Positions 1,180-44,200 of a stretch of DNA of 64,000 nt are shown piece after piece. The notes below the pieces were generated by a model. The model was not told the origin of the DNA. It did not search any database and saw only the letters and a list, made by a program, of their open reading frames with translations. The position numbers were made by a program, and so were the translations under genes. Each line of letters starts with the position of its first letter. Position 1 is the first letter of the stretch. Source of the stretch: Lytechinus pictus (taxonomy: Eukaryota); contig NC_087251.1 in NCBI RefSeq assembly GCF_037042905.1, forward strand, positions 40,178,001 to 40,242,000, given 5' to 3'.

Positions 1180-2661
1180 TCTCCTCATCATGGTTATAAA
1201 AAGTGCTCAGAATGTTTTATTTTCAAGTCCTTGTATCAGAATTTTCAGCTCGGGCAGCTCTATCGCATTTTGATTACTATCCTGTTGATTTATTTACTTG
1301 AACAAAATATTTAAAATGTCCAGCTTTTAGAACAGATATCAAAAAAAGGTATTCACCTTTGATCATAGATGAGGAAGAAGAAAAAAGTGAAAAAAAATAG
1401 GAAACAAACTAACGAATTAATGTGACATAATTTTTCTTCATTTCAAGGCGACTCTTTACATTTCATCATCGCTGATGGCGCTACAATAGAAAATACCGCT
1501 TGACAGCAAAAAAAAAAAACAGAAAGAGGAAAATAATGCTGAGCGTCTAAAATGCAGCTAGCAGTACAAGCTGCAGAACCGTAAACAAACATCTTGTGAA
1601 TAATATCGCGCGCCCTCTTTAAGCAAAAGTTTACAACCACAATTACCCTGCGGTATCTACGTGAAGATCACGAGAAAATGCATTTTTTTTCTTAAAAACA
1701 CACCAAAGAGAAGACAAGAAACGATCCATATGGTTCGGTAAGTGTCATAGCACAATTAGAAACATTATTTTAAAAGGAATGGCTTAGTTATTTTAGTAAA
1801 AAGGGTGTGAAAAATTTGCGTGCACCATGTGCATATGAATCCTTCGCACGCGAGATGCATTGATCCCATGAGTGATATTGAGGTATGATCGATTACAATT
1901 TTTTTCTCGAGCATGGCCTATATCACGAGTATGCCCGGAAAAGTGTCAAGACGTCAATGATGAAGAAGTATATGACAGTATATAAAAAATCATCATCATT
2001 GCGTCCTCAAGACTACGTGCCAACAACAGTGATACTGAATGTAGAAAACAGTACACAGACTTACATATGTGGGACACATGCAGGAATTACTCTCAGAAAG
2101 CTGGCGAAATCCAGGCCAAATCACAGTTTGCAGATACATAATAGAATTTAGGGAGAAGAATAATAACTGTTCTATGGAAATATGTAACTTTTTACCGCTG
2201 CCACCATGTTTCAAGTTATATTATGAGTCAGAAACAAACAGAATTACAGCTTCTGTATACACTGCTGGCTAGCGACCGACGGGTTTCCATTCTCGGCCGT
2301 TCTCTGATTGGTCAGTTAAGACAGTACGGTGTCTGTGTGTTCCGTGTGTGTGTATGTGTGATGCGAAGCGTGCTGTACATGTGTTCACTGGATTTGGGGG
2401 CATAGAATAGATACCCAGTCGTTTTATTGATTTTAACCTTACAATTAATAACAACGATCAGGGATATTTTGTTGCTGTGTGTGCATGTGAAGGATAGAAG
2501 TTTCTTACAGCTCTTAATTAATTGACTCTCTTTCCAAGCTTAATATTTAAATAATTGCTAAATTCCAAGTTTTTCGAAAGAGTCTTTTATTTTTTCCTCA
2601 GTCTATTAATTCTCCATTACATCAATTAAAGAGAGTATTATACAAAACAATGTCCACTGTA

Positions 2662-4365
2662 CATGCATGGAAACCTGCCGTTCAATTTACTATATGTTTC
2701 AGTGTATAATGAAAATGGAAACATGCCGGTCAATTGACCAGTATATATGAAAATGGAAACATGCCGGTCAGTTTACCATGTATTTCACTGTATAATGAAA
2801 ATGGAAACATGCCGGTCAATTGACTGGTATGAATGGAAACATGCCGGTCAGTTTACCATGTTTCACTGTATAATGAAAATGGAAACATGCCGGTCAATTT
2901 ACTATATATTTCAGTGTATAATGAAAATGGAAACATGCCGGTCAATTGACCAGTATAATATGAAAATGGAAACATGCCGGTCAGTTTACCATGTATTTCA
3001 CTGTATAATGAAAATGGAAACATGCCGGTCAATGACCGGTATGAATGGAAACATGCCGGTCAGTTTATCCATGTTTCACTGTATAATGAAAATGGAAACA
3101 TGACGGTCAATTGACTATATGTTTCAGTGTATAATTAAACTGGAAACATGCCGGTCAATTGACTATATGTTTCAGTGTATAATTAAACTGGAAACATGCC
3201 GGTCAATTGACCAGTGTATAATGAAATGGAAACATGCCGGTCAGTTTACCATATGTTTCAGTGACGGTATAATGGAAATGGAAACATGCTGGTCAATTGA
3301 CCAGTATAATATGAAAATGGAAACATGCCGGTCAGTTTACCATATATTTCACTGTACATGTATAATGAAAATGGAAACATGCCGGTCAAATTGACCGGTA
3401 TGAAAATGGAAACATGCCGGTCATGCAGTTTACCATATGTTTCACTGTGAAACTGGAAACATGCCGGTCGATTGACCGGTATATATGAAAATGGAAACAT
3501 GCCGGTCAATTGACCATATCATGTTTCAGTGTATAATGAAACTGGAAACATGCCGGTCAATTGACCAGTGTATAATGAAATGGAAACATGCCGGTCAATT
3601 GACTATAATGAAACTGGAAACATGCCGGTCAATTGACCAGTGTAATTATGAAATGGAAACATGCCGGTCAATTGACTATACGTTTCAGTGTATAATGAAA
3701 ATGGAAACATGCCGGTCAATTGGCTATGTGTTTCAGTATAATGAAAATGGAAACATGCCAGTCAATTGACCAGTATAATATGAAAATGGAAACATGCCGG
3801 TCAGTTTACCATATATTTCACTGTACATGTATAATGAAAATGGAAACATGCCGGTCATGCAGTTTACCATATGTTTCACTGTGAAAATGGAAACATGCCG
3901 GTCAATTGACCAGTATATAATGGAAACATGCCGGTCAGTTTACCGTATTTTTCAGTGTATAATGAAACTGGAAACATGCCGGTCGATTGACCGGTATATA
4001 TGAAAATGGAAACATGTCGGTCAATTGACCATATCATGTTTCAGTGTATAATGAAACTGGAAACATGCCGGTCAATTGACCAGTGTATAATGAAATGGAA
4101 ACATGCCGGTCAATTGACTATAATGAAACTGGAAACATGCCGGTCAATTGACCAGTGTAATGAAATGGAAACATGCCGGTCAATTGACTATACGTTTCAG
4201 TGTATAATGAAAATGGAAACATGCCGGTCAATTGGCTATGTGTTTCAGTATAATGAAAATGGAAACATGCCAGTCAATTGACCAGTATAATATGAAAATG
4301 GAAACATGCCAGTCAGTTTACCATATATTTCACTGTATAATGAGAATGGAAACATGCCGGTCAAT
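2662..4365 (+). repeat. Left-arm tandem array of the foldback element (~40 units of ~30-50 bp, core ggaaacatgccggtca)
   Basis: Recurrent aatggaaacatgccggtcaattgac / ggtcagtttacc units; explains the repetitive METCRS pseudo-ORFs. Confidence 0.95.
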
Positions 4366-5259
4366 TCTGTTCATTTTCTCTCTCTTTTTTGTTTCTCTCT
4401 TTCTCTCATTGTCTATCTACATGAGACGCATGGGGATTTTTTTTTAACTTTTTAATTTGATTTGATTTATTTATTTCCGTTTCACAATTTTATATTCTTT
4501 GAAAAACAGAAAGTGACAAGAACGTTTTTCATCAGCCAGCTGATGCATGTATTCATTAAGATTCCACATTATGAAAAAATGTGCAAATTGAAAATAGCAA
4601 TTTAACAGACAAATGAACTTCATATTCTTTCAATTTATTCAATAAATTTTGTTTGTTTTATTTATTCACCATGCAACACAAAAATAAAACGTCAGAAATA
4701 GTATACATAGATATGATACAAAGGAGGGGCTGCACATAAACAAAATATGTCAAGTGCAGATAGCATCATAGCTACTTAAATAATTCGAACTCAAACCATA
4801 TTGGCTCTCTATACAAGCATTCATTAAAAACTCCAAAAATAATGCATGTATATATCATCTTGAATAAAATTTCAAAAACATGCATAAACTATATCTCAAA
4901 GAGGAAAAGTATACTAAAAATCATCATTTGCAGTATTCTCAGATAAATAAATCCATACAAATTTCATATTTTTATGATGAATTGGGGAGTGTTAAGGGAA
5001 GGGGGGCATCATGCCCCAGCTAGCCCATGCAGTTTGGGGTTAAGCAAGTGTAAATTTATTTTCAGTAATTAATACCCATTTGATTGCTTTGACAAATTAT
5101 TAGATATCTTTCAATAAAATGACAAATACATATTTTTCCACATTTTCAACGACGTGTATTGTAAAATCAGAACAGCTTCCGATAGAAAAATCACTTAATT
5201 CGCTTACTTTGGACGTATATTGCATTGCAATTAGTAATCCATATATATGTCCCATTTAA

Positions 5260-5860
5260 AGGGATGGTCGATCCAAGCTGGGAATATTTATATCTCAATG
5301 AATAGAGTAAAATTCATAGAGCACAATGCTGAAAATTTGATCAAATTTCGGATAATAAATAACAAAGTTATTTAATTCTAAATATATGTGCATTATATTC
5401 CAGTGAAACAGTTCTATAGGCAGTGACTTTTTATGAATATTCATTAGGTGGGCCGATGATGTCACATCCCCACTGCTTGTTCTTTTGTATTTTAATGAAA
5501 TTAGGTTAAGTCAAAACATTTTTACCAAATTAAGAACTAAAACAATGGGATTTACTGATTACGTACGTGCATTAGTTATTACAATTGCCGCAACTTATTT
5601 CATATTATGGATCGAGACACATATCATTTACACTGTATGAAAAAATGAAACATTTATGACTTCATGTAATGGAAAGTGGGGATTTGACATCATTAGCCCA
5701 CTAATATTCATGACGGTGCGCATAACTGTTTTTACAAAATATTGATAAACTTCAAAATTTTTAAATTCAATAACTTCGATCCTTATTTATGTTATCCGTG
5801 GATTTTGATGAAATTTTCAACATTTTGCTCGGTGAATTTTATTATATTTATTTAATAACA
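5260..5860 (+). mobile_element. Degenerate Kolobok-like MITE inside the foldback spacer
   Basis: Starts ttaa|agggatgg; internal blocks (tgctgaaaattt, gatgtcacatcc, gattttgatgaaattttc) resemble the 20321-20896 family; right end eroded. Confidence 0.55.
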
Positions 5861-6404
5861 ATATCAAAGTAAAGTGGAGGTTCCAGTCTGCAATCTACTT
5901 CCCTGTTGAGACTCCTCCTGTACACAAAAATATAAGTAAATGAAAAAAATAATAAGCAAAAACATTCCGAATTAAACCTTTCTTTAAATATAGCTAGGGA
6001 ACAGCGAGGTGTTTAGAGGGTATACATTCTATGATATCCATCTATATAAGAAGGCAAATTACTCTTAAATACTAGAAGTCCCTGATAAAATATGCTTTCT
6101 CCAATACCCCCCCCCCCCCGATAATACCCTAACACAATAATGGTGTGTTAATCCCTTGTTCCGTATTGATTTTGAATTTATAGTCAGAGTCTCATGAGAA
6201 TTAAAAAGGGGATTACAGCGTGGAAGTTCCTTTTGATTAGTCCATATGGATAGTAATTAAGTCCCTTGAATAGTAAACTTGTCAGACATATCCTGCCATA
6301 ATCAACAAGTACAGTCAATATAAAAAAAAACTTCCAACTATATGCTTTACAGGCAACCCAAACGTCCACTCAAATCACTGATATTTTGTAATGAAACTTG
6401 TTGA

Positions 6405-7250
6405 CAGGCATATGTTTCCATTTTCATTATACAGTGAAATATATATGGTAAACTGACCGGAATGGGCCGGCATGCATGTTTCCATTTTCATATTACACTG
6501 GTCAATTGACCAGCATGTTTCCATTTTCATATATACCGGTCAATTAATTGACCGGCATGTTTCCATTTTCATTATACAGTGAAACATATATGGTCAATTG
6601 ACCGGCATGTTTCCAGCTTCATTATACACTAAAAACATATAGTAAATTGACCGGCATGTTTCCATTTTCATATATACCGGTCAATTGACCGGCATGTTTC
6701 CATTTTCATTATACACTGAAACATATATGGTCTTGACCGGCATGTTTCCATTTTAATTATACTCTGGTCAATTGACCGGCATGTTTTCATTTTCATTATA
6801 CACTGGTCAATTGACCAGCATGTTTCCAGTTTCATTATACACTAAAACATATGCAATTGACCGGCATGTTTCCAGCTTCATTATACACTGAAACATATAG
6901 TCAATTGACCGGCATGCTTCCATTTTCATTATACAGTGTAACATGGTAAACTAGCTGACCGGCATGTTTCCATTTTCATACCTGTCAATTGACCGGCATG
7001 TTTCCATTTTCATATTACTGGTCAACTGACCGGCATGTTTCCATTTTCATAGTACCGGTTAATTAACCGGCATGTTTCCATTTTCATATTATACCGGTTA
7101 ATTGACCGGCATGTTTCCATTTTCATTATACACTGAAACATATGGTAAACTGACCGGCATGTTTCCATTTTCATATTATACTGGTCAATTGACTAGCATG
7201 TTTCCATTTTTATAATACACTGTCCATGACCGGCATGATTCCATTTTCAT
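6405..7250 (-). repeat. Right-arm tandem array of the foldback element (~20 units, inverted)
   Basis: Units tgaccggcatgtttccattttc are the reverse complement of the left-arm unit. Confidence 0.95.
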
Positions 7251-8713
7251 TACAGTGGACATTCTATAATGTAATGAAACACTAGTGAAGACTCTTTAAT
7301 TGATATGTAATGGGAGAATTATCTAAAACAAACAAATCAAATAATTGGAATTTAGCAATTATCATTATAATTTTAAGCTTGGAAAGAGAGTCAGTTAATT
7401 AAGAGCTGTAAGAAACTTCTATCCTTCACATGCACACACAGCAACAAAATAAACCCATCCCTAGCTGACTCATCGTTGTTATTGTAAGGTTAAAATCAAG
7501 AAAACGACTGGGTTTCTACTCTATGCCCACACGTCCAGAGAATACATGTACAGCCACAGTTTGTGTACAGCACGCTTCGCATCACACATACATGCACACG
7601 TACATGCACACGGAACGCACAGTCTTAACTGACCAATCAGAGAACGGCTGAGAATGGAAACCCGTCGGTCGCTAGCCAGCAGTCTGTATACGGTCGAGAG
7701 AGTAGCATTTAATAAGTAACGTTTGTAGCGCCCTCTTTTGGCAGGATCATTACATGCTCCTCAAATCTCATAGACATTTTATTTATTTATTTATTCATTT
7801 CATTTCCAGGCAAAAGAAAACAAGAATATGTACAATAGGAATAAATTACCACCGACTAGTGCCTAAAAGACAAACTAGTTTCTGTTATGAAGCTCTCCTC
7901 ACTAGTCGGGGTTTACAAATATACAAAAATAAAATCGGTATAAAATGGCAATATGTATGTTTAGAAGCATTACTTATAAAGGGTGTTTAATTGTTTCCAT
8001 GTGCAATTATAATATCCAGTCAATATGAAGTGTTCATGTATTTAAATAAACAACGTTATGCTATTATCAGATAGTAAAGCCTGAGGATATGGAGTTGCAT
8101 ATATTGTGAGAAATTAAATGTTACCATAATCAGAGAATACGCAAATAGTCAAACGTGACAATAATGATCATGCTACAAAGTAACACAACAGTAAAAATAT
8201 AGTATCAAAATAATTGTCAGATGCATGTATACAATATTTAGAGAGAGAGAAAGAGAGGTGGGGAGGGAGAGAAAAGAAGAAGAAGAAGGAAAAGAAGAAG
8301 AAGGAGAAGAAAGAGTTTAGAGAACTGGGGTAGAATGAATAGAAAGAGGGGCAATAAAAGAGACAAAGCATGACATACAAAAATGCAAATTCTACTACAA
8401 TGAATACAGTTGATAAACTAGCATATAGGAATAAACAATATGAAAAGTACAAGAGCAAATAATTGCATAATAGTAATTAACAAATTGCATAACATAGGGC
8501 ACAATATTTAAGCTAAGAATATAAGGCCAAATACAAGGCCCTTTAGCCTGCACAGAGTGAGAAAAACAGAGAAAAGTAAGACGAATGAAGAAGGGGAAAG
8601 AGAGAGAAATTAGAGGTCTAAACGGAGACAAGACGAAAACAATACTCTGCATGTCTCATTAAAACGAATTTCAATTGGAGGCATGGAGAATAAGTGTTCA
8701 CGTAGAGCATTAA

Positions 8714-9299
8714 AGGAGAATGAAACTCTTGGAGCAAGTTAGCTTTTGTGAAAGCAGAAAAATCAAAGAATAAGATCAACAAAAGTTTGAGTAAAATGGG
8801 ACTAGCAATAGAAGAGTTATGAGCATTTGAATGTCGAGATCACTAATGCTATGGAGATCCTCATATTGGCAATGCGACAAAGATCTATGATGTCACAGAT
8901 GAACAACTCTCCCCTTTTGGACACTGGAAATATATACCCCAAAACATCTCTTTTTGCTCGTTCTAATCATATGACAAACAATTCATCAATGATATAATGT
9001 TGTGAAACCTCTGTACTTGTCCTCTCATAAAGAGAACACCTCACCTTCTGATAGACTCTATAAAAGTGAGAATATAAGTGAAATAAGTACTAAAGTAATG
9101 AGGGAGTTGTACGTGTGTGACATCACAGATCTTGGTCGCATTGCCAACGAGAGGATCTACATGGCATTAGTGATCTCAATATTCAAATGCTCATAACTTT
9201 CTTATTATTCATTCAATCTTCCTCAAACTTTCAACATTATGTTTCTTTGATTTTTCTCTTTGATATGGATTCAGCTGGTTTCAAGGGTTTCATTCTCCT
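8714..9299. mobile_element. Kolobok-like MITE (TTAA TSD, AGG...CCT ends)
   Basis: ttaa|aggagaatgaaac ... gtttcattctcct|ttaa; perfect 13-bp TIR plus internal inverted segments (gagatcactaatg / cattagtgatctc). Confidence 0.85.
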
Positions 9300-10189
9300 T
9301 TAAATGACAAAATTATAATGGACAGATGATGTATATTTATTATATGAGACATGATCTGCACAATGAGTATGGTCAAACTTTGTGTTCAGCAAATTTCCAA
9401 GTTTGATGGGTTTTCGTATGTTAGGCAATTACTGGCAGGATCATGCCAACAAAGACAACTACAAAGAAAACTGATACTAACAAAGAGAAATAGAATCGTA
9501 TAATTTTAAAGCAGTTCATCATTGTTGTACATAAACTTCATTGAATTGAATTGAATTGAATTGATAACTTTATTATCCCCTGACGGGAAATTTGCTTTTC
9601 ACTGGTGCATTACAAATACAAAATAATACTTACAAGGAAATGAAGTTTACAACTGAGATGACAAATATGAATACATCAACAAGTCAGCAGGAATAATAAA
9701 CTTAATTTAAACATAGGGTTTACAGGGTTTCATGTCCATTAACTTGATTTCAATTATTTGAGAACTGAATGCATTCCAAAGGGACCCCAAAACAACAACT
9801 CTTTAGTAAATAGCAAACCATTCAGGAGAAACAAATCAAATCAAGCAGCAATCAAAGCACAAAAGTAAATAAATAAAACAATTAGCATAATTACATAAAG
9901 AAGCTGGGAACTGTACTTCTGTAAAACACACGTAGGAATCAAATTACACAGACTGCTTCCTCAATTATGATCTCATTGAATATTTTAGGCTACAATACTA
10001 TTGACTTATTCATCCTGTCATAGATGTTTTTTGTTTAGAAAATCTTCCACGCGTGGAAACCATTCTCACTACCTTCCTAAAACTAGTTTACTGGAAACTA
10101 GTTTACTGGAAATTAGTTTAACGTGTAGTGAGAACGGTCGAAGCGATCTTGGTAGCGATCTTCCAAACCGGTTCAGAAAAGGAGTGACA

Positions 10190-11670
10190 GATACGTACAC
10201 CAAGGCAAAGATCTCTGATCTCTGAAGGGATAGATTCCCAGAATCTGGGGAAAGAAAAGAAACAAGAAAATTTCAGGGCATAACATCGTGCAAATTCATG
10301 GATGAAGAGTAACTTGTGAGAGTTCCGAGTTCTTGGCCTGGGTAAGATATGAGTAGGTATGTCGCAAGTTCTAATTAAACAACGATTTTACAACAAAGGC
10401 GGTAGATAGGTAGACCAGTCTGTTATAGCTCTATGGTTATACAATGGTGGGAGTTCTAAGCTGGGTAATCTTTCATCATAAGAGAGTGAATTTGCCTGAT
10501 CATAAGGAAAGCAGAAGCGTGTGAATCGACGTTGAACTGCTTCAAGAGAGGATATGTGTTTTTTTTGATGGGGTAGCCAGACTGGTATACCGTATTCAAT
10601 TATAGGCCGACAAAGTGAACAGAACAAACGTTTCAAAATGAAAGGATTTCTTGAATTCACTATCCTGCGGATGAATCCTGACAGTTTGGAACATTTAGAT
10701 ACAACAAGATTCACATGCTTTGACCATGTCAAATCATGCGAAAAGACCAATCCAAGGTATTTGTAAGAATCAACAACATCGAGAGCATGGTTACCATACA
10801 GCAAAGTATTGATCTGTAATAACCTTTCGAGATCTAGTGATGTGCATTATCTTACATTTCAACGCATTCAGTTCCATGGAATTATTATTGCACCAGAGGA
10901 TTATGGAGTCAAGGTCAGATTGGAGAACTTCTGTGTCATTCTGGGTACATATTGTACGATACAGCACTGTGTCGTCAGCATATTGGGGCAAGCAAGTACC
11001 TGCAGAAATTAAGTTGGGCATGTCTGCAGTAAACAAATAAAAAAGAATAGGCCCAATGACACTCCCCTGGGGGACTTCAGAGGTTACAGAACTCCAATCC
11101 GACTGACTACCTTGGAACAGAACACGCTGGACCCGGTTTGTAAGAAAAGAACAGATCCATTTCAAAGCATTCTGACATACCCCAAAACTATGTAGTTTAC
11201 GAATAAGTACCGAATGACTCACTTTATCGAACGCTTTCGACCAGTCTAGAAATATTGCATCTATATATACTCTCGGCGGTGAGGTGCGATCTAAAGTTTT
11301 TGCCCAAGTGTGAAACAGAATCGCGGCTTGCGTAGCACAAGACCGCTTAGGTAGAAACCCATGTTGAGTGTCAGGGATGATTTTATGGTCCAAAGAGAAA
11401 TCAATTAGTTTGCTCACTATAATCTTTTCAAGGAGTTTACATGGTACAGAAGTGAGTGAGATAGGTTGGTAATTTTTAATTGAAGACCGTTTGCCACTCT
11501 TATGCAGGGGGATATAACATGAGCAGCTTTCCAATCATTCGGTACAGTGCCTAGATTCAAACTGAGATTAAAAATGCGAGTTAGAATGGGGATAACTGAG
11601 TTACCGGCAAGTTTGAGAAATGCCAGGGAAACACCGTCTGGGCCAGGAGGTTTGGAAGGGCCATGTTTGG
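10190..11670 (-). mobile_element. 5'-truncated, frameshifted CR1/L2-group LINE reverse-transcriptase fragment
   Basis: ORFs 10791-11534 and 10388-10804 carry YQPISLTSVPCKLLE, QHGF, FLDWSKAFDKV, VPQGSVIGP, YADD, YKYLG and LEAVQRRFTR. PGPDG lies upstream near 11640 and a TRNSH...FWESIP C-terminus near 10230-10330. Confidence 0.9.
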
Positions 11671-11784: not shown

Positions 11785-11995
11785 AACCCTCTGAAGACTT
11801 GTACAGATTTTATGTAATAGAATTTGCTGTGTATGATACTAGCATAGATCCCCATAGATCCCAAGAATTCTATGATTTTGAGGTCAGAAGGTCAAAAGTG
11901 AAGTTGTCACCTTCCAGTTTTCTTGCTTGACCAATAACTCCATTTTCCGTGTTACAGGCGGGCGTATCATGTGCTCGCCTTAGCGACACTCTTGC
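11785..11995 (-). mobile_element. Fragment of HINE-like family 2 (same family as 45706-46728 and 52982-53563)
   Basis: acaggcgggcgtatcatgtgctcg is the reverse complement of the family end cgagcacataatacgcccgcctgt; includes one partial core unit. Confidence 0.7.
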
Positions 11996-19300: not shown

Positions 19301-22300
19301 TTTTTTTAATAGCATTTGAAAGACAAGACCTTAGAGCACCTATTAACACCAAAATATAGACATAATAATTTGAAACTAAAATTTTATAGACTTTTCAAAT
19401 CTGTCCCGTTTTTTTTATACGCACTGTAGAAGTAACTGAGAAGTTAATGAAGGGTTAAGAATATGGGATAATTAGATACTGTGCCCCTTATTTCAAATAC
19501 ATGTAGATTGCATGGATTGATATTCACAATAATGATTATATGTTTTTTTTAATTTCCTTTAGTAAATGAAACTGAATGTGGTCGTCCGCTTGGTCTACGG
19601 TTCACTCAGGATGGATTATTGTATGTCATTGATGCATATCTGGGCCTATTCCAAATTAATACATCAACAGGTATATACGTTATGAACTATGAAATATTAT
19701 CTTTGTCTTCATTACTTTTTATAATTTGTATTGCTTTCTGAAAGAAAACTTTTCTTGACTCCTCTTTCTCAGTTTCTCCTTTTTTGTTTCCTTTCTCTCT
19801 CTTGTGCCCCCCTTTTTCTCTCTCATATCATATTTCTCCTCTCTCATCTCATCTCTCTCTCTGCGCTGAATGAGAGGGTTGAAAGTAATGTTTTTTCAGG
19901 GTCAGTTGCCTGAGCATGAGTGTAGATCTGTTAATAATAATAAAAATAATGTCATATTTTACCCAAGGAAGCCACTTCAGTTCTGAAAACTGTTCTACCA
20001 GCAGGCCTTGCTGCTCAACATGATAATGTTATTATTACTCCGGCTTTAGCATGTGATGTATAAGGAGTGTGGTATGAATGTGATTGTGTTTTGAAAGTGA
20101 TTGTTCATTGGCCTTAATAATGCATAGTCCCGGTTGATGTTAGCCAATACTGCCCTTCCTCTTTTCCATCAAAACAGTGTATTTGAATAATTGATTACAT
20201 TGTCCTGGTTGGAGGGTTTGATAATCCCTGACTGGAGCTGCAAATTTGACTGCTTGCTGACGGGACCCAGGACTCATCCTTTTTGTCACCTGCTTAAATC
20301 TTTTCACTTTCTCTTTTTAAAGGACAAGTCCACCCCAACAAGAATTAAGTTGATTTGAATAAAAAGAGAAAAATCCAACAAGCATAGCACTGAAAATTTC
20401 AACAAAATTGGATGTAAAATTATGACATGTTAAAGTTTTGCTTAATTTCACAAAACAATTATATGCACATCCTGGCTCTTATGCAAATGAGGAGACTATG
20501 ACGTCATCCACTCACTATTTCTTTTGTATTTTATTATATGAAATATGAAATATTATAATTTTCTCCTCATTGTCAAGTGATACAACGATTAATTCCTCCC
20601 TGAACATGTGTAATTAGCATTGTTTAATACTATATGGTTCAGTCAAGTTGGTCCTTATTGTCAAATCTATAAAAAATGAAATTTTGTATAATTGCAAAAT
20701 AAATAGTGAGTGATGGACATCATTGACTGACTCAACTAGTTGTGCATATATCACTGTTTTGTGAAAAATAAGCAAAACTTTAAAATGTCATAACTTTCTT
20801 ATTTTACATCCAATTTTGATGAAATTTTCAGCACTATGCTAGTTTGATTTTTCTCTATTTATTCAAGTCAGCATTTTCCTGGGGTGGACTTGACCTTTAA
20901 ATTACGATGCTTAAACCACCTCTTTTCAATTTTTACTTTTTTTCCCCTTTTGGTATAAAATGGTCACACAATTGAGATGCAATATATTACTGTTATTATT
21001 ATTGAAGGTTCGATGTTTTAAACCAGTTTTGTACACTATGAATGTAAACCTGTAAATTGTACACAATTCAGCCTCTTGGCTGCGAAGTATACAATCTCAA
21101 TAAAACCTTCTCAATTTAATTCAGTTTAACACTGTCTCCTCTCTTGTTCTCCATTCATATCTCTTCTAACCCTAATTACATTGTTGGTATACTTACAGAT
21201 ATTCCATAATTATCTTGTTTAATTACATACTAGTAATTGAAGAATGTCCATCTCGTTACCACACCATCACCACCACTGCAGGTTTGAAATGACTAACCAT
21301 CTAAATCCAATCCTTTCAGGTGAGAGTACTAATTTAGTAGCAAGAGATACAATAGTGGATGGCAAGCCTATTCTATTTTTCAATGACCTGACTGTTGGTT
21401 CTGATGGCATCATCTATTTCACGCATAGTAGCACGAGATGGCATAGATTTCAACATCTCTCTCTTGCTATGGAAGGAAATAATGATTCAAGGTTATTATT
21501 CTTGTCATTCTTTCTATTATTCATTGTGTTGCTGTTTAATTACTTTAATAATGAAAAGCAATGTTGAAAAAAACCATCCTTAGATTTTTCCCCTTCCCAG
21601 CTTATTACCTCTCTCTTTCTATCCCCTCCTTATTTTAATAATTCCCATTATGTGGAAAATGATACTTGTAGAAATAAAAACAATAAAAAAAATATTCTTT
21701 CCATATGATATGATAACTGAAAAGTATCCAGGTGGAAGGATTCTTGGTGTGTACTAGATACATGTATATGCTATATAAAGAATAAGTATATATTGAACGT
21801 ATGTGGTGTATTATAACAAATAGGTCCGTATTCTGAAGTCAGGTTTAACTTAGACCATGGTCTAACTCTGTGCTAAAATTATGGAAAGCCAAAAATGTCA
21901 AAATGTCCTTACGTTGTATATTTCTTATGATTACTGTGCTCTTTCCTAATCGTCATGGTGAAGATAGCTATCTTACTTATCCTTCCGAAACAGTTAAGAA
22001 TGATTTGAAAGAAAAATGAGCTGATACATTGAAATAATACTGTTATAGATATATGACACTATTGACTATCCATACTTAATTAAACCACAACTTTAAACCC
22101 GAGTTTAAATCTAACCCGACTTCAGAATACGGACCATTGTGTTTTTACTGTTCCCATACTCTTTTGACATATTTCAGACTACTTCAGTATAACCCGTCAT
22201 CCGGGGAAGTTTCTATTCTTATCGATGGTTTAGCGTTGGCTAATGGGGTACAACTATCAAAGGATGAAAGTTTCTTATTGGTGGCTGAAGGAGGAAGAAT

Positions 22301-24090
22301 GAGAATACATCGGTAAGTTGTCATAATAAGGGTAATAGAAATGTCAGTGACAGGAGAGATGGAGGAGGGAGGGAGAGGGGGGGGGGGGGGGGCAGAAAGA
22401 AGAGAGAGAGAGGAGACAGAAGGGGAAATGGAGGAGAGGAAGAATTTAAAGACCCCAACAAAAAGTTGATTTGAATAAAAAGAGAAAATCCAACAAGCAA
22501 AACACTGAAAATTTCATGGAAATCGGATGTAAAATAAGAAAGTTAGGACATTTTAAAGTTTTGCTTTATTTCACAAAACAGTTATATGCACATCCTGGTG
22601 GGTATGCAAATGAGACTGATGACGTCATCCACTCACTACTTCTTTTGTATTTTATTATATGAAATAGGGAATATTTTATTTTTCTCCTCATTGTCAAGTG
22701 AAACAACGATTAATTCCTCCCTGAACATGTGGAATGAGCATTATTTAATACTATATGATTCAGTCCAGTAAGTACTTATTGTCAAATCTATAAAAAATGA
22801 AATATTGTATAATTCAAACAATAAAAAACAAAAGAAATAGTGAGGGACATCATCGACCTCATTTGAGTTGTGCATATCACTGTTTTGTGAAAAAACAGCA
22901 AAACTTTAAAGTGTCATAACTTTCTTATTTTACATCCGATTTTGATGAAATTTTCAGCGTTTTGCTAGTTTGATTTTTCTCCATTTATTCAAATCAACAT
23001 TTTTCTGGGGTGGACTTGACCTTTAAACTGTAACTCAAACTACTTCATGCAGCACAAGCATGGGTTGAAAAGAATGAATTCATCTATATCTTTATCGACA
23101 TAAGTATGGTTAGCTTACTTTATCAGATGATGTATTCAATGTTCTTATCAGAGTAAGGTTTGAATAAAATCCTCTTACATTGTAGTTCAAGGTTGGTAAT
23201 ACAAATTAATTGAATTTATTCAATTTACAGGTACTTCCTAACTGGTTCTCGCCAAGGAGAAAGGGAACTATTTGCTGATAATCTACCGGGTTTTGCGGAT
23301 AATATTCGTCCAAGTTCGGATGGGGGGTTTTGGGTAGCCTTTCCTACCATAAGACGACGGTGTCTCTATGATGTCTTTGCTCCAAGACCATGGCTTAGAA
23401 AGCTTCTTGTTAAGGTAATATCGGTGTCATAGCAGGCATACTCGGGCATTGATGTTTATTAAAATGCATCAAAATATTTGGAATAATAAGGAAACATTTT
23501 TTTTTATGTTTCTCATGAAAATTGGTATATTTGAATATAGAGAAAAAGTGTAAGCTGTAGATAGAGTGATTGTTGAAATGATTCTCAAACTTATATTCCT
23601 GACCATAAATGATGAATATGTAACATGGGTAGTTCTATAAAGTCATTCTTTTTTAAAGTCTGACCATCATTCATCCTATTTCTAGCTTACTTCATGACCT
23701 ACATAAGCCTAGATGATAAGTGCATGAGCCAATTATGAACGAACTAGGAAACGGATAGATCACTTCAGGAAGCTCCCACATATAGGGGGGGGGGGGGTGG
23801 ACATATATACTTTATAGAATTGAAAAAAACTTGATTACTTCTATTGATATTAATAATTTCTGTTATCTCTCTATTTATCCTAGTTTTTGAGCCCCGATTT
23901 CATTATTCATTCTACCACCAAGCCTTATGGTCTGATCATGGAGTTTGCCGAGGATGGTCACATCATACAGAGGTTAGATGATCCTACCGGTGCTGTAGTT
24001 CCTTACATCAGTGAGGTTCTTGATACCGGAAATGCCTTATACCTAGGATCATATACTTCTCCCTTCTTGGCTAAGATACATTTACCATGA
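16281..24090 (+). CDS. APMAP: APMAP-like (adipocyte plasma membrane-associated protein; strictosidine synthase-like beta-propeller), spliced, 5'-partial
   Basis: join(16281-16396,17179-17274,19563-19670,21320-21491,22178-22312,23231-23414,23884-24090) with AG/GT boundaries and consistent phases. Motifs GPES, YSGTADG, CGRPLGLRF, DAYLGL, FND, ANGVQLS, NLPGFADNIR, ISEV, LYLGSY. Confidence 0.9.
17179..17274 (+). CDS. APMAP: APMAP-like exon
   Basis: aaag| GIIYSGTADGKIIKISPNMELTSLVSLGPLNC |gtaag. Confidence 0.88.
17418..18067 (-). mobile_element. Old LINE (CR1/L2-group) 3' fragment
   Basis: SRALFLKLNILPISLLHDFQLSVFMYSYYNNLLP resembles the C-terminus of the 41710-44727 ORF ([16 protein letters not shown]...[13 protein letters not shown]); (tttcaa)n-type tail near 17420. 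Confidence 0.65.
18070..19426. mobile_element. Tc1/mariner-like non-autonomous element, ~300-bp TIRs, TA TSD
   Basis: ta|cagtgcgtataaaa...cgggacagatttgaaaagtc ... gacttttcaaatctgtcccg...tatacgcactg|ta; arms 18070-18365 vs 19135-19426. Confidence 0.88.
19563..19670 (+). CDS. APMAP: APMAP-like exon
   Basis: tttag| NETECGRPLGLRFTQDGLLYVIDAYLGLFQINTST |gtata. Confidence 0.9.
20321..20896 (+). mobile_element. Kolobok-like MITE (TTAA TSD)
   Basis: ttaa|aggacaagtccacccc ... ggggtggacttgacct|ttaa. Confidence 0.85.
21320..21491 (+). CDS. APMAP: APMAP-like exon
   Basis: ttcag| GESTNLVARDTIVDGKPILFFNDLTVGSDGIIYFTHSSTRW...MEGNNDS |gttatt. Confidence 0.88.
21823..22135. mobile_element. MITE with ggtccgtattctgaagtc TIRs
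   Basis: ggtccgtattctgaagtc ... gacttcagaatacggacc (18-bp perfect IR); TSD unclear. Confidence 0.7.
22178..22312 (+). CDS. APMAP: APMAP-like exon
   Basis: ttcag| LLQYNPSSGEVSILIDGLALANGVQLSKDESFLLVAEGGRMRIH |gtaag. Confidence 0.9.
22450..23022 (+). mobile_element. Second copy of the 20321-20896 Kolobok-like MITE
   Basis: Collinear with 20321-20896; left TIR has a short deletion; right end ggggtggacttgacct|ttaa. Confidence 0.85.
23231..23414 (+). CDS. APMAP: APMAP-like exon
   Basis: tacag| YFLTGSRQGERELFADNLPGFADNIRPSSDGGFWVAF...RPWLRKLLVK |gtaat. Confidence 0.9.
23884..24090 (+). CDS. APMAP: APMAP-like last coding exon
   Basis: cctag| FLSPDF...KPYGLIMEFAEDGHIIQRLDDPTG...ISEVLD...LYLGSYTSPFLAKIHLP*; AATAAA at 24165-24170. 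Confidence 0.9.
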   Translation, partial: FLSPDFIIHSTTKPYGLIMEFAEDGHIIQRLDDPTGAVVPYISEVLDTGNALYLGSYTSPFLAKIHLP

Positions 24091-28306: not shown

Positions 28307-29210
28307 CTACAAATAGAGAGTGTAAACAATATAGATCCTTAATATGAGTTATGACCAGTCATAACTTTAAAGAAATTAATAATCAATAATCATATACGAG
28401 TATTGTACAAAAATACTTACTTCACAAGATTCTATGAATAATATTTTTCTATAGCCATATCTATATACATGTACATTGAATATCTCATCTAACATTTCCC
28501 CCTAGTTTATGTTAAGTGCAAATCTCAAGATAAGCCTTGGATCACTAAGTGCACCTTATGGCTTATCAAAGGGGTACTCCAGGCAGAAAACAATACGACT
28601 TGAACAGATAAAGAAAAATCAGACAAACAGTTAAAATTTGACCAAAATCGCACAAGGAATAACAAAGTTATGGCAATTTAATGATATGCATTATTCCAGT
28701 GAAACAGTTCTAAGCATGCCTTTATGAATATTTAATGAGCAACTGATGTTATATTCCCACTTGTTCTTTTGTTTTTCATTCAAAAATGCACAGATTCTTA
28801 CAAGAAGATATATAAAATAAATTACCTAGAATGCACATTCGCCTAAAAAATTTAAGGTGTAAGGTCAAGACCTTTGATACATTATATACTATACTATATA
28901 ATGGTATCTCTAAGCTAAAACGGTGCAGGTTGGTGGTTTTGGTGTCAAAATACAGAGATTCTTACAGGAAGATTAAATGATATAAAATTAAGCATCGAGA
29001 ATGCACAATCACCCATAAAATTCAAGGTCAAATACTTTATTTTACATTATATACTGTATAAGGAAATCTCTAAGATAAAAATCACTGGTTGGTGATCTTG
29101 GTGCAAAAATGCACAGGTTTGTACAAGAAGATTAAACAACACAAAATTAAGCATAAAGAATAAACTTTCACCCTTGAAATCCAAGTTCAGAGGCAATTAT
29201 ATATATATAT

Positions 29211-38200: not shown

Positions 38201-41200
38201 GCAATACCAACTTGTACCAAACGTACCAACAATCGTGCCCCCACCAGAAAAAATAAGCTAGGATACATGAAATAAAAATACTGTATTGTTCCATGATAAA
38301 TAAAGTTTTTACTTTTCAAAGCAGTTTCTACAAAATCAAATACACCTCACCAATCATATTCTGCCTAGACAAGAGGGTTAAGAGAAGAGAAGGGGAGAAG
38401 ATGAAGAATAGATTTATTGGATAAAGCAAGGAGAAAGCAGCAGATGGGGATAGGAGTAAAGGAGAAGAGGTGAAAAATATCAAGAGAGAGAGAGAGAGAG
38501 AGAAGGAAAAAATGCAACACCTCCAGGGGTAAAACTTGAGGCAGAGAATTATCCTGGGGGATTATCATGAGATAAAAACAAAAGATTAAAAAAAATATTT
38601 GGCCTCATTATCTTTCTCAACTTATGAAAATATGAATTTCCTGGTGTAGGGTATCAATTATTCTGACAATGAAATCCCTGTTCAGAGCTTGCAAATCTGG
38701 GACATGTGTACAAAATATGTGTTTAGAGTGTCCGAGCAGCCTGCCCTTGAATCCATGTTTAGAGTGCTTTTGCTGGGGCGATTTTCACGGAAGTTGTCCA
38801 CTCTTCAACGACAGTGACCCCCTCATCCTGGACAAAAACTTTAAAATTTTTGTAACAGACATAACAGAACAACAGGAAAAGTGATCACTAGGTCTCTGCC
38901 GAACTTCGTTCAGGCGAGGGCGGATGGGGGAGGGGGAAGCAGTGGTAAACACAAAGTCTATGGGTGAGACGCATTTCATATTTTAAACATGAATAACTTT
39001 GGTAAACATATCTATTTGTGATGTTATATGTCAAGTTCCAGCCACATGCAGCCAGTCAAGTAATTTCAATAAATATTCGAACATTTATTTTTGCTTTCCC
39101 CCCGTAAAAGCTAGCAATGTGTCTGTTAATACATGTTCATGTAATATCCGCCCAGAGGCACCACAAAGTATTTATCATCACAAAAGCATATTTCTTATTG
39201 TACATGTATCTGGCCATTAAGTCTGTAGTTAGGTAGGAATCTTTGGTCTACAATCTGCTGGACAAATCTAATGCAGAACATAACTAACATTTTATCCTTG
39301 CGGCATCAAAGGGCTTTAAAGGGAATGGGTTGGATGGTTCTCCATGTCTTATAACTCCTTGCTCCAACCTGGGTTGCTGTGAACTGTTTGACAATTTTTG
39401 CGGATAAATTCGTACCATGCAGTACTAGTGCCAGATAATTGCTGATTGAAGCCCACTTTAAAAAGTGGAATTGTCTACAATTTTTTGTTCTCAATATAGA
39501 AAAAAATATATATATTTCCATTAAGACTTGTATATTTGTATATTATTAATATGCAAACATATCAAACACATATGGGGGAGGGGAGCTTTAAGAACCATAT
39601 GGCTTAGTTCCTTAGCTCTCAAGAGAGCCAATGTACCAATCCGAATTGTATTTTCTAATAGTTCAAATTATTTTTGAACAATACATGGTATGTATATTAC
39701 ATAGAGTTCTTTCCCACAAAAAAAAATCTTTAAAAATGCATGTACGTAATTTTCTGTACTTCAAGTTACCACAAAGATTCCCCAGAAATTGCACTAGCAA
39801 TACAAATTGAAATGTTGATTACTGCTGGTATGACAGATACCAGTGGATTGCTTTTGGTTATAATGCTAAAGTAACACAGCCATGATACGCACCTGCAGAT
39901 GCCTGCGTATATTTGGTTGACGAAAATGCGTAATTTTTACCCCCAACAACATAAATTTGAGCAAAAGTTTCCTACATACTGCAGACGATATGGATAAGCT
40001 ATGGATGTTATGGGTGAAACCTGCGAATGAGACCATTCGCTGCCAACCCGCTGACACATGTCACTCACGACTTACGGATTTTACGGGAGACTAATGGATA
40101 AGTTATGCTCGTGTCTGCGCACGTCGGCTTGCTCTGGCGTCCGCACCATCCGCATATAAAACCATGTGGATCGGAAACTTGCTTCCGTTGCATTTCATCA
40201 AGTCTGAGAGCTAGAATACTTTGTTTTTGTAGTTTACCATAATGTGCTTTAATATATTATTTACAGACTGATTGGAGATATAGACTGTTTCAGGGTTCCA
40301 AGCTTTTCAAGAAAACAAAATTCCCTAATTTTTTCCCTGATGAAGTTTAAAATTACTTGATAATTATTTAAACCCATTCCCAGTTTCGTATGTTTTCTAA
40401 GTTGTTGCAGTGAATTACATGTATTTTCAGTATAAAAATCTTGGCAGTAATTCAACACCCACACTTCCCAGGGCCATGTTCGTGTCGGGAATTCGTTTAC
40501 TTCCCTTTATAATGCAATGATATGATGAATATTTATAGTAGTGAAAAGACCGGAAAGTTACACAAAAGTACAGAAAGAAGTATAAGATTCGAATCTTGAA
40601 AATGTGTTGAAACTCACTGCACTCGCTCGGAAATCCGAAACCCCTCATTTCCCATCTCAATCTGTCAGAACATGCATGCCAGGCATTTCCTGTAACATCA
40701 GACTCACCAGAAAAAGATGACCGGAGCATCTAACGTTGCAGCAAAGTTGAATGCAGCATGAGCATCACCTTCGCTAGCAGCTCCATCACCAAAATAACAA
40801 ACTACACAAAGGTCACGACCCGATCTCTTCAATGCATATGCTGCTCCAGAAGCTGAATATAGAAGGGGAAGTTGAGTTAAATTGATTTATCATGAACTTA
40901 TGAAACTGTTTGGGAATCATTCATCAACATATAATAATGTTAAAGACTCAAACCAGGTGGGTGTTTCATAAAGCTGTTCGTAAGTTAAGAACGACTGGTG
41001 ATCCTTTCTTACGCACTAAATAATCACCAATGAACATTTAATGGTGAATATCATCTACCACAAGAAATGATCACCAGTCGCTCTTAAAGTCAATCTTGAC
41101 TTACAGAGTTAAAAGTGAAATTGAACAAGTGGAATGCCTCTGGCCGTCTCACCTGCATCACGCGATTCAATATAGCAGCAGTGCTGATTTTGAAAACTAC

Positions 41201-44200
41201 TATAACTCGCACAAGATGTTCAGTGATACTTGGTTACTCTTATTTCCACGTTTTATGAACTAGACCAATACACTTATAGAGATATGATGGCAATTCAACA
41301 AATACCCCCAACATGGCCAAAGTTCTTTGACCTTACATGACCTTTGACCTTGATCATGTGACCTGAAACTCGCACAGGATGTTCAGTGATACTTGATTAC
41401 TATTATGTCCAAGTTTTATGAACTAGACCAACACACTTTCAAATTTATGGCTGTAATTCAACAAATACCCCAATTTGGCCAAAGTTCATTGACCCTAAAT
41501 GACCTTTGACCTTGATCATGTGACCTGAAACTTGCACAGGATGTTCAGTAATACTTGATTACTATTATGTCCAAGTTTCATGAATCAGATCCATAAACTT
41601 TCAAAGTTATGATGGTAATTCAACAGATACCCCCAATTCGGCCAAAGTTCATTGACCCTAAATGACCTTTGACCTTTTCTTTTGAATAATATATAAGTGT
41701 AATTTTTGTATGTATAATCTTGAGAGCCAATATCTGAATGATATTACAAGATTAAATAGATTTTTATCACCTGATGTTGATACCGAAGATGCTACTTTTA
41801 ACTTATCTAATAATGTTTTTTCTATTTCTAAATTTAATACCAAATTGAGGGATTGTGTGTCAAATAATAATTGTATAAATGATAAACATTTTTCATGTAT
41901 ACATATAAACTGTCGAAGTCTTTCTAAGAACCATGAGAATTTGATTTCATTCTTAAGCTGTTTAGATATCAAACCTACAATCATAGGCCTAACAGAGACT
42001 TGGATTTCCGAATCCACACCAAGTGCAATATTTAATATCGATGACTATAAATTTGTTGGTTTAGAACGTAAGAATAAAAGAGGTGGAGGAGTTGGTTTTT
42101 ACATTCGTAATGATGTTGAATACTCCCATGTAACAGAGTTTGATATCAATGAATGCCACGTAGAAGGTATATTCTTGGAATTGAAACTTTGTAATAATTC
42201 TATATATGTCGCATCTATTTACAGACCACCTGGTCAGCCCATTGGTTTATTTGTTAATTCATTATGTGCAATACTGGATAAAATAAATATATCTTGTAAA
42301 AAACTGTATTTACTAGGGGATTATAATATCGACTTGTTAAAAGTGAATAGGAATTATGAGGTTAATATTTTTTTAGACACTTTGATATCTTATTCCCTGA
42401 ACACTTTAATTCATTATCCAACCAGAGTCACTGATCACTCTGCGACTCTGTTGGATAACATCTTCACCAATGACGAAAGTGTTTTTTTGTCAGGTGCATT
42501 GTTTTCCGACATAAGTGATCACTTTCCTGTTTTTTGTTTAAGTAACACCATTCTTAACTGTAATAAAAATAATAATATATCTGGGAAGCGGCGTAACATC
42601 ACAGATCAAAACATTGCTAAATTCATTCTTGAATTAAATAAAGTTGTTTGGAATGTTGATCATGAAGATCCAAATAAGTCTTATGATAAGTTTTTAGACA
42701 AATTTTTACATGCATACAATGTATGCTTTCCATATTCCTCTTTTTCCATAACCAATAAGAATAGGAGCTATAAGCCATGGATGACAAAAGAAATACAAAA
42801 GTTAACTAAAAGAAAATGTAAGATGTATAAGAAATTTATTAAGAATCCATCTGAATATAGGAAATGTGTTTATAAGAAATCAAGAAATAAACTCACAAAT
42901 TTAATTAAAAAAACAAAAAAAGAATATTTTCGATTACAGTTCCAAAATGCCTCTGGTGATATGAAACAAACATGGAAAGTGATTAACAAAACACTTGGTC
43001 GTTCTCAAAAGAAAGCTGGTCTTGATAAAATTACATACCAGGATCAGGTCTTAACAGATAATAAAGTGATATGTAATACAATAAACAAATACTTTGTTAA
43101 CATTGGTCCGAAGTTACATTCTGAATTTACATCTAATATAAATACTCAATCTGATTTATTAAAGTATATTACTAAAAATGACAAATCTTTATTTTTGTCC
43201 CCAATAACTCCTAAAGAAATATTGGATATTGTAACTGGTTTTAAAAATAATGTCAGTGCTGGTTTTGATGGTATTGATGTCAAGGTTGTAAAAAAGTCAA
43301 TACATGTAATTGCTAAATTATTATGTGATATATTCAATTCTTCTTTTGTTACTGGGATTTTCCCAGACCAGCTTAAGATTGCAAGAGTGGTCCCTGTTTT
43401 TAAATCTGGTTCTCCTGACATTATTTCAAATTATCGTCCAATTTCCGTTTTATCCATTTTTTCAAAAATATTAGAAAGATGTATTTATTCTCGTTTACAT
43501 AGTTTCATTTCTCAGTGCAATATTCTTAACAATAATCAGTTTGGTTTTAGAAAGGGGCACTCCACATCTTCGGCCTTAGCAGAATTTGTATATAAAGTCA
43601 CAAGTGCATTAGATAAACAGGAAACAATGATTGGTCTTTTTATTGATTTAAGCAAAGCTTTTGACTCACTTGATCATGATTTATTATTACGTAAATTAAG
43701 TTATTATGGAATTAGGGGGGTTGCACTCAGTTTATTTGACAATTATTTTCAAAATCGTAAACAGTTTGTTTCGATTGATAATTTTTCTTCCTCGATGCAA
43801 GGTATAAGATGTGGAGTGCCTCAAGGGTCGATCCTCGGCCCACTTCTGTTTATAATTTACATTAACGATTTAAGTAATGTCTCCAAAATTGTGGACTCTA
43901 TATTATATGCAGATGACACCAGCTTGTTCATGTCCCATAAAAATGTGCAAACTTTACAAACTATTTTCAATAAGGAACTGAAATATGTATCTAACTGGCT
44001 TACTGTTAATAAATTAACCTTAAATGTTAAGAAATCAAATTTTTTGGTTTTTACAAATAAAAATAGATCACAATTCAAATTTGAGGTTTGTTTAAATGAT
44101 AAGCCAGTTAATGAAGTAACATTTACTACCTTTCTAGGTGTTAATGTCGATAATAAGTTAACTTGGAATGAACATGCTGGTGTCATCTGCAATAAAGTTG

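Follow-up and report, generated by a model that had tools for sequence, protein, structure and literature searches.

A probable non-autonomous foldback transposon of Lytechinus pictus with a motif shared by its tandem arrays and its ends

A probable foldback transposon in the sea urchin genome

Here, we describe an element of about 5.4 kb, located at positions 2261-7683 of a 64-kb stretch of DNA from the sea urchin Lytechinus pictus (RefSeq assembly GCF_037042905.1, contig NC_087251.1, forward-strand positions 40,178,001 to 40,242,000; hereafter the window, which contains no N), that is very probably a non-autonomous class II (cut-and-paste) transposon of the foldback type, inserted as one unit with duplication of an 8-bp target. 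It belongs to the foldback structural class, having long terminal inverted repeats (TIRs), modular arms that contain unequal numbers of tandem repeats and a flanking target site duplication (TSD). What is new here concerns the organization of the arms, namely that the 22-bp core of the tandem arrays recurs once, inverted, near each end of the element, that the long array units are palindromic and that blocks of units have been duplicated within one arm. The original prediction, made from the letters of the window, had already treated the element as a single non-autonomous foldback unit, and this is now supported by the exact TSD, by a join between the two flanks that skips both arms and the spacer between them, and by the presence of the terminus in other flanks.

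Boundaries, target site duplication and terminal segments

The outer limits of the element are defined by two exact 8-bp direct repeats, CTGTATAC, and by ends that match each other in inverted orientation, perfectly over 34 bp when counted from 2261 and 7683. The features concerned are as follows.

2253..2260, + strand: left TSD copy, exactly equal to 7684-7691, with a chance of about 8e-5 at fixed ends
7684..7691, + strand: right TSD copy, identical to 2253-2260
2261..2322, + strand: left terminal TIR segment of 62 bp, starting ACTG, the most conserved and most repeated part of the element, 61/62 identical to the right end
7622..7683, - strand: right terminal TIR segment of 62 bp, 61/62 identical to the left end

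The chance value is the probability that two random 8-mers of the window agree (8e-5), and the TSD 8-mer itself has just two occurrences on the + strand of the window. The terminal 17-mer, with up to three mismatches allowed, likewise has two matches in the window, as against none in each of 100 shuffles. The two 62-bp ends differ at position 2295, where the letter of the right arm predominates in all four of the sequencing runs that were aligned (see below). Within this conserved tip there is also a short inverted motif resembling a CCAAT box, at 2304-2315, 44-55 bp inside each end.

An 8-bp duplication flanking the element had been proposed at the outset and is borne out at 2253-2260 and 7684-7691, while the 9-bp duplication offered with it as an option is disfavoured, requiring ends at 2261 and 7682 and thus termini that are asymmetric by one base. 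We rejected the 9-bp TSD on these grounds, a right end at 7682 breaking the terminal symmetry. A CACTG start at 2260, of the CACTA type, was also rejected; there is no matching G at the right end, and 29 reads break at 2261 against nine at 2260.

Modular arms and growth of the left array

The arms are about 2.1 kb (left) and 1.3 kb (right) in length, and each consists of an outer domain of about 400 bp, which includes the terminal segment, followed by an inner tandem array. Their parts, with the two block duplications found in the left array, are listed here.

2323..2661, + strand: interior of the left outer domain, non-tandem; against the right arm, 295 matches, 23 mismatches and 75 gap columns (four segments summed)
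7250..7621, - strand: interior of the right outer domain, in inverted alignment with the left arm
2662..4366, + strand: left inner array of 40 units of 31-54 bp, with the core directed inward and the long units forming imperfect palindromes centred on GGTCAATTGACC
6400..7249, - strand: right inner array of 20 units, opposed to the left array, without block duplications and without a unit exactly shared with the left arm
3455..4299, + strand: recent duplication of a block within the left array, where units 19-26 (3455-3787) occur again as units 31-38 (3970-4299), with 329 matches, 1 mismatch and 3 gap columns
2669..3141, + strand: older duplication of a block of five units, also in the left array, between units 1-5 and units 6-10, with unit distances of 3, 1, 0, 2 and 1

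Taken whole, the left outer domain (2261-2661) aligns with the reverse complement of the right one (7250-7683) with 356 matches, 24 mismatches and 75 gap columns, and blastn reports 79.9% identity over 408 columns with gaps counted. Set against the 61 of 62 positions that agree at the ends, these substitutions and gaps mean that the arms are near-identical at their tips only.

The arrays, in which units were counted with one mismatch allowed in the core and together range from 31 to 64 bp, have no unit exactly in common (30 distinct units on the left, 19 on the right). Both the outer inverted domains of about 400 bp and the approximately 40 and 20 opposed tandem units of the original prediction are confirmed, the unit numbers being 40 and 20. 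Much of this asymmetry stems from block duplications within the left arm, the two blocks explaining 13 of its 20 extra units, and the left array has therefore grown through duplication inside its own arm. In the older block, 2717-2928 aligns with 2929-3141 with 205 matches, 6 mismatches and 3 gap columns; no comparable repeated runs of units are found within the right array or between the arms. Open frames run through the left array, for example at 2738-3103; they have no Pfam match and are a consequence of the sequence of the repeated unit. A 301-nt piece of the same array, taken as single-stranded DNA, folds better than 100 of 100 shuffles (z -4.4), which follows from the palindromic nature of the units and is not counted as evidence of function.

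A core motif shared by the arrays and the element ends

The 22-bp core that is directed inward in about 60 copies within the arrays is also present as one outward-pointing copy 14-35 bp inside each end. These terminal copies were found with a profile made from the array cores alone (57 or 58 cores), which was run across the 122,814 strand-positions outside the arrays.

7649..7670, + strand: single outward-pointing copy of the array core near the right end, the best profile match, agreeing with the unit consensus at 18/22 positions
2274..2295, - strand: single outward-pointing copy near the left end and putative transposase site, the second-best profile match, with p ~1e-7 per position

The right and left copies score 27.8 and 24.4, respectively, against 15.2 for the third-ranked position, and they remain the top two of all positions under three different score caps. 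The two ends are counted as one observation, with p ~1e-4 for a search of the 800 positions of one outer domain. In a gapped comparison with the array, the score of the terminal 40-mer is equalled by only 4 of 2000 shuffles of that 40-mer. The outer domain, which had been described as unique, is not entirely so, containing one inverted copy of the array core.

Some of the long units carry, in addition, a degenerate half-site that points outward, nine in the left array and four in the right, whereas 200 shuffles of each array gave means of 0.035 and 0, respectively. A further observation concerns the 9-mer at the left junction (2256-2264), made up of the last five letters of the target and the first four of the terminus, which has 16 outward copies in the arrays and none elsewhere in the window. 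The long unit looks like junction and terminus with a longer spacer. By our estimate, this would be a coincidence of roughly 1%. The flanks of other terminus copies in the reads display no target preference that matches this 9-mer.

The spacer and the history of the two arms

Between the arrays lies a stretch that has no blastn match with the arms (4367 to about 6400) and no inverted match between its own two ends. Part of it is the remnant of a different mobile element, a miniature inverted-repeat transposable element (MITE).

4367..6399, no strand assigned: AT-rich non-coding spacer of about 2 kb, brought in with the arms; no long open reading frame, no Pfam match at the cut-off, and missing from the element-free join described below
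5256..5885, no strand assigned: decayed MITE relic with internal inverted repeats, beginning with TTAA (5256-5259) and a purine-rich start, Kolobok-like, its right end degenerate

The longest stop-free frame of the spacer is 71 amino acids. The relic has blastn matches at 20779-20866, 22471-22992 and 28633-28784 and also aligns with 8670-9340; a TTAA target together with purine termini are hallmarks of Kolobok elements (PMC9587614). The 'unrelated' spacer of about 2 kb in the original prediction therefore holds good with respect to the arms, but part of it is an old MITE relic that has relatives at four further places in the window. Those places, 8710-9303, 20779-20866, 22471-22992 and 28633-28784, are themselves diverged, TTAA-flanked, Kolobok-like MITEs akin to the relic, and the copy near 8.7 kb (8710-9303) has long inverted arms.

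The divergence of the arms and the character of the spacer raise the question of whether the element is a hybrid, in which the transposase made joint use of two ends from already diverged members of the family, some 2 kb apart, so that the intervening host DNA was captured and the whole subsequently moved to the present site as one unit. Such a history would account for arms that, beyond their first 62 bp, are separated by 23 substitutions and 75 gap columns and have no array unit exactly in common, as well as for a spacer that resembles ordinary host DNA with a decayed MITE, and chimeric copies with two TIRs are known for Galileo (PMC3573991). Against this, the arms of ordinary copies of the foldback element Tm1 are on average about 93% identical, so that no special history is needed (PMC3169594), and the Galileo chimeras lack matching TSDs, whereas the present copy has one (PMC3573991). 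We regard a hybrid origin as possible but rather unlikely. The perfect TSD and tips suggest that the element jumped recently, from a copy in which the arms had been diverging for a long time.

Evidence of mobility from public sequencing runs

Of 21 listed public sequencing runs, 16, from three organisms and six studies, hold 0.06-0.16 of the words of 1200-9000, and no RNA run is on record among these listed holders. Reads or contigs of four of the 21 (X2, X9, X10 and X19) were aligned with 1200-2655, that is, the left flank together with the left outer domain, and the terminus is found in all four.

The most informative of these alignments is a contig of X2 that departs from the window at 2248, where its loose end continues with window positions 2247-2258 and then with 17 of the 18 letters of 7692-7709 in the right flank, as compared by eye. 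The left and right flanks therefore exist joined to one another without the arms or the spacer, and, whether this join is an allele or a paralogue of the site, it means that the spacer is not native to the place of insertion. The empty site that the original prediction had put forward as a check may in this way have been recovered in part, the flanks being joined without the element but with six of the eight target letters and no single intact CTGTATAC.

This join is also what largely refutes an explanation in which a one-armed repeat inserted twice, independently and in opposed orientation, or a local inversion took place, around native DNA, with the 8-bp repeat arising by chance. The diverged arms, with no exact unit in common, and the fact that no second paired copy was seen would suit such events; however, an 8-bp match of this kind would arise by chance with a probability of about 8e-5, and a join that lacks spacer and arms leaves no native spacer for them to have enclosed, making this explanation very improbable. 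We consider it slightly less probable still that the structure is an assembly artefact of a collapsed or mis-joined repeat. The nearly exact 333-bp block of the left array could be a duplication made in assembly, and no run was shown to span the element, but the arms are too unlike to stem from a single sequence that was assembled twice, the TSD and the join form a coherent picture, and the terminus is present in all of the aligned runs.

Further support for a mobile unit comes from the end itself. Among raw RNA reads of X19, 29 break before 2261, with a consensus agreement of 0.48 that reflects mixed flanks, and nine before 2260, while a contig of X9 also diverges from the window at 2259 (141 unlike letters). 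The end of the element is thus at 2261, and it recurs in several flanks. A break at 2262, which bears on the 9-bp option, is not among the six break positions listed for X19; as 138 more loose-end rows lie beyond this listing, the option is disfavoured only moderately. In X10, the summed contig depth, which is not a copy number, is approximately 2850-3010 over 2229-2326 compared with 30-42 over 2376-2571, which suggests that many elements share the tip and few share the interior of the left outer domain at 85% likeness. No further complete paired copy was read, and the terminus recurs in many flanks.

The left flank has repeats of its own. Between 1396 and 2260 it is repeat-rich in X10, with a summed depth of up to ~140,000 at 1935-2032, and contigs of X9 and X2 match 1200-1874 at ~99%; the site of insertion appears to lie within or next to older repeats.

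Several observations weigh against the interpretation of the element as a mobile unit inserted here in one piece. A single complete copy was seen, so that the length of the TSD rests on one insertion, and none of the 16 holding runs reaches half of the words of 1200-9000. The element-free join keeps six of the eight target letters and has one mismatch, contigs of X9, X10 and X2 have a two-letter insertion behind 2245, and the flank appears to be repeated (several diverged contigs, with a depth of 264-608 in X10); the join may therefore be a paralogous 'related empty site' rather than an empty allele. Contigs X9 record 20 and X10 record 6 begin to align at 2263, some copies differing in the first two letters. 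With regard to the shared motif, 189 of 2923 other 40-mers of the window equal the gapped score of the terminal 40-mer against the array, a control that is not significant and ignores composition. Lastly, no transposase was found; of the 28 frames of at least 35 amino acids that overlap the spacer, the 23 lying wholly inside it were scanned, none having a Pfam match at the cut-off and two giving chance-level matches (E ~0.04).

Candidate mobilisers and a model of transposition

The element is placed in no superfamily. Most Mutator-like elements (MULEs) have G-rich terminal letters, the GR..YC rule, with exceptions, hAT elements have (C/T)A termini and short TIRs, and P and Galileo elements have CA..TG termini. 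The ACTG terminus misses the G-rich start, which counts against a MULE mobiliser and lowers its probability without excluding it. An ACTG end and kb-long arms likewise depart from hAT, and the element differs from P and Galileo in that reads end at 2261 and the TSD is 8 bp rather than the 7 bp of Galileo. The statement in the original prediction that ACTG fits neither hAT nor P termini agrees with these rules as commonly given; Mutator/Rehavkus, the usual home of foldback elements, was left unweighed there.

Most foldback elements belong to Mutator, with exceptions (PMC4079207, PMC3169594), and MULEs have TSDs of 8-11 bp (PMC6446971); the 8-bp TSD and long TIRs seen here fall within that description. 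An 8-bp TSD is equally typical of hAT and Zisupton (PMC12730594, PMC5499845), and the present one agrees with hAT and with Zisupton/KDZ in this respect. The copy has no coding remnant that would point to a KDZ transposase, and in the literature consulted there was no terminal consensus for that group. The CAC..GTG termini and short TSDs of 2-5 bp that mark CACTA/EnSpm elements (PMC12730594) are not found here. Repbase assigns non-autonomous families by their TSD and first 11 terminal bases (PMC4455052). On this evidence, we give a mobiliser of the Mutator/Rehavkus/Phantom type about an even chance, take Zisupton to be unlikely, hAT somewhat more so and P/Galileo improbable, and hold another or undescribed type to be unlikely as well.

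The alternative to a Mutator-type source, taken as a whole, is that a hAT, Zisupton or P/Galileo transposase mobilises the element with the array motif as its subterminal binding site. The target, whose second and fourth letters are T and whose fifth and seventh are A, agrees at this one site with the preferences attributed to hAT. In favour of this alternative, 8 bp is the usual duplication for hAT and Zisupton (PMC12730594, PMC5499845), while MULE-type foldbacks mostly have 9 bp (PMC3169594, PMC6446971), and Galileo, which is of the P type, has a similar layout with conservation confined to about 40 terminal bp (PMC3688188). Most foldbacks nevertheless belong to Mutator (PMC4079207), and the Galileo TSD is 7 bp (PMC3573991). 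Moreover, the ACTG end of the present element conflicts with the (C/T)A expected of hAT and P, and the reads place the end at 2261 and not at the C of 2260. We judge this a tentative possibility, below even. None of the superfamily signatures checked accommodates an ACTG end together with an 8-bp TSD. One may therefore also imagine an undescribed lineage of sea urchin transposase, for which the arrays would amplify the end of the element itself, with its core motif, its palindromic dimer site and possibly also the junction 9-mer. To this speculative reading we attach a low probability.

Whichever superfamily is involved, the structure of a foldback unit lends itself to the following model. An autonomous copy elsewhere would supply a DDE transposase, which would bind the 22-bp motif, the motif copy 14-35 bp from each end would position cleavage at the ACTG terminus, and the arrays, by analogy with other systems, may serve as secondary sites in many copies, loading more transposase and helping the two ends to pair across 5 kb. 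The head-to-head half-sites in the long units would suit a dimer. Excision, followed by reinsertion with an 8-bp staggered cut, would yield the TSD, with the spacer travelling as passive cargo. The arrays themselves probably arose from a duplicated terminal motif and may have changed in length via unequal exchange or slippage. One precedent is Muta1, which has a TSD of 8 or 9 bp and for which it has been determined experimentally that more subterminal repeats lead to more binding and more excision; its natural non-autonomous copies have unequal repeat numbers (PMC5499845). The internal repeats of Galileo carry copies of its THAP site, where the experimental support extends to binding only (PMC3688188).

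Other features of the window

Searches of the window with Rfam and ARAGORN gave no match. An exon at 51979-52239 matches the Lytechinus pictus branched-chain ketoacid dehydrogenase E1-alpha with 100% identity across 87 amino acids, the next match being to another urchin at 90%. In an intron of this BCKDHA-like gene, between exons 47798-47968 and 40710-40877 and antisense to it, lies an uninterrupted frame of 1013 amino acids (41686-44727, + strand) with endonuclease and reverse transcriptase domains, which is the ORF2 of a long interspersed nuclear element (LINE), possibly young. Broken fragments of a LINE reverse transcriptase, in two frames, are present at 10388-11534 (- strand). A frame at 21241-21567 (+ strand) is exon-like and has a weak match to strictosidine synthase (E 2e-4, below cut-off), and is probably part of an APMAP-like gene.

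Unrelated tandem repeats also occur. A unit of 152-156 bp is found at 45799-46657, 53082-53489 and 11817-11993, forming short tandem arrays at two of these places and a single related copy at the third, and there is a separate 162-bp array at 41204-41676. At 48935-49432 is a 23-bp minisatellite of 21.7 copies with 94% matches, through which long repeat-derived frames run on the minus strand.

Significance and comparison with known foldback systems

The importance of the element is modest, and it would change no general picture unless its partner proved to be a new type of transposase. It does, however, name a precise candidate for a transposase-binding motif, making the model in which arrays are multiplied binding sites directly testable in a deuterostome, and in the growth of one arm the known path by which a transposon becomes satellite DNA can be seen on a small scale. 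The conserved 62-bp end could serve as a probe for the autonomous partner. Transposon transgenesis has reportedly been achieved in Lytechinus (PMC11361634), a laboratory model, in which a native active system could have practical interest.

In the literature searched, which did not extend to subscription papers and supplements, we found no description of a Lytechinus foldback family or of these ends. Pattern scans of viral contigs gave no match with the array core and none with the terminus. In metagenome contigs there were seven loci with one match each, none of them with an array and the longest 33 bp, which we treat as chance; one of these loci, examined over its whole length, shows nothing else of the element.

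The sea urchin system closest to hand is that of the TU elements of Strongylocentrotus purpuratus, which are said to have 15-bp tandem repeats outermost, a non-repeating inner domain and an 8-bp TSD. So described, they resemble the present element in their sea urchin host, modular long TIRs, non-coding middle and 8-bp TSD, but the order of the domains is reversed and the units here are 31-64 bp rather than 15 bp, a comparison made by description only. The original prediction had considered the layout notable as the reverse of TU. The contrast is real but unremarkable, Tetris, Galileo and Rehavkus all having the outer-unique, inner-tandem order.

In Tetris, from Drosophila virilis, a variable tandem domain lies inward of an outer flanking domain, the TSD is 8-10 bp and a 37-bp stretch is common to the flanking domain and the repeat unit (PMC4079207). 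Like Tetris, the Lytechinus element is non-autonomous, with an outer non-tandem and then a variable tandem domain, a non-coding middle and a TSD within 8-10 bp, and it also shares with Tetris a stretch common to outer domain and unit and the growth of arrays by duplication within an arm. It differs in its units, which are 31-64 bp compared with about 220 bp (again by description only), in having no third inner inverted domain (TIR-ID) and in the position of the shared motif, which is here at the very end and in the opposite orientation.

The element further resembles Galileo, of the P superfamily in Drosophila, in its long TIRs conserved chiefly at the tips (PMC3688188) and in tandem repeats that lie within the TIR at a depth of a few hundred bp, are unequal between the arms and repeat a near-end motif (PMC3688188, PMC3573991); in Galileo F copies, the tandem repeats lie 264-467 bp from the end and are unequal in number (PMC3573991). 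Galileo, on the other hand, has few, long repeats, a 7-bp TSD and its main THAP site at +63 to +80, and its termini are CA, whereas the element described here has an 8-bp TSD, an ACTG end and its motif at +14 to +35.

The third comparison is with Rehavkus, Tm1 (Phantom) and Muta1, all of which, like the present element, combine a TIR with variable, asymmetric subterminal arrays and a TSD within 8-11 bp (PMC12581902, PMC6446971, PMC3169594, PMC5499845), with as many as 50 repeats within Rehavkus-3_TC's inverted termini (PMC12581902). They also include non-autonomous copies with unrelated interiors, and the arm identity of Tm1 is about 93% (PMC3169594). Unlike the present copy, these elements mostly have a 9-bp TSD, and the present copy has no MULE transposase; Muta1 also differs in starting with a GGG palindrome, with the repeats directly following the end (PMC5499845). 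The outer-unique, inner-tandem layout is thus already known, and the Lytechinus element is probably a further case of a known kind of transposon, belonging to a family that is probably uncatalogued and possibly undescribed.

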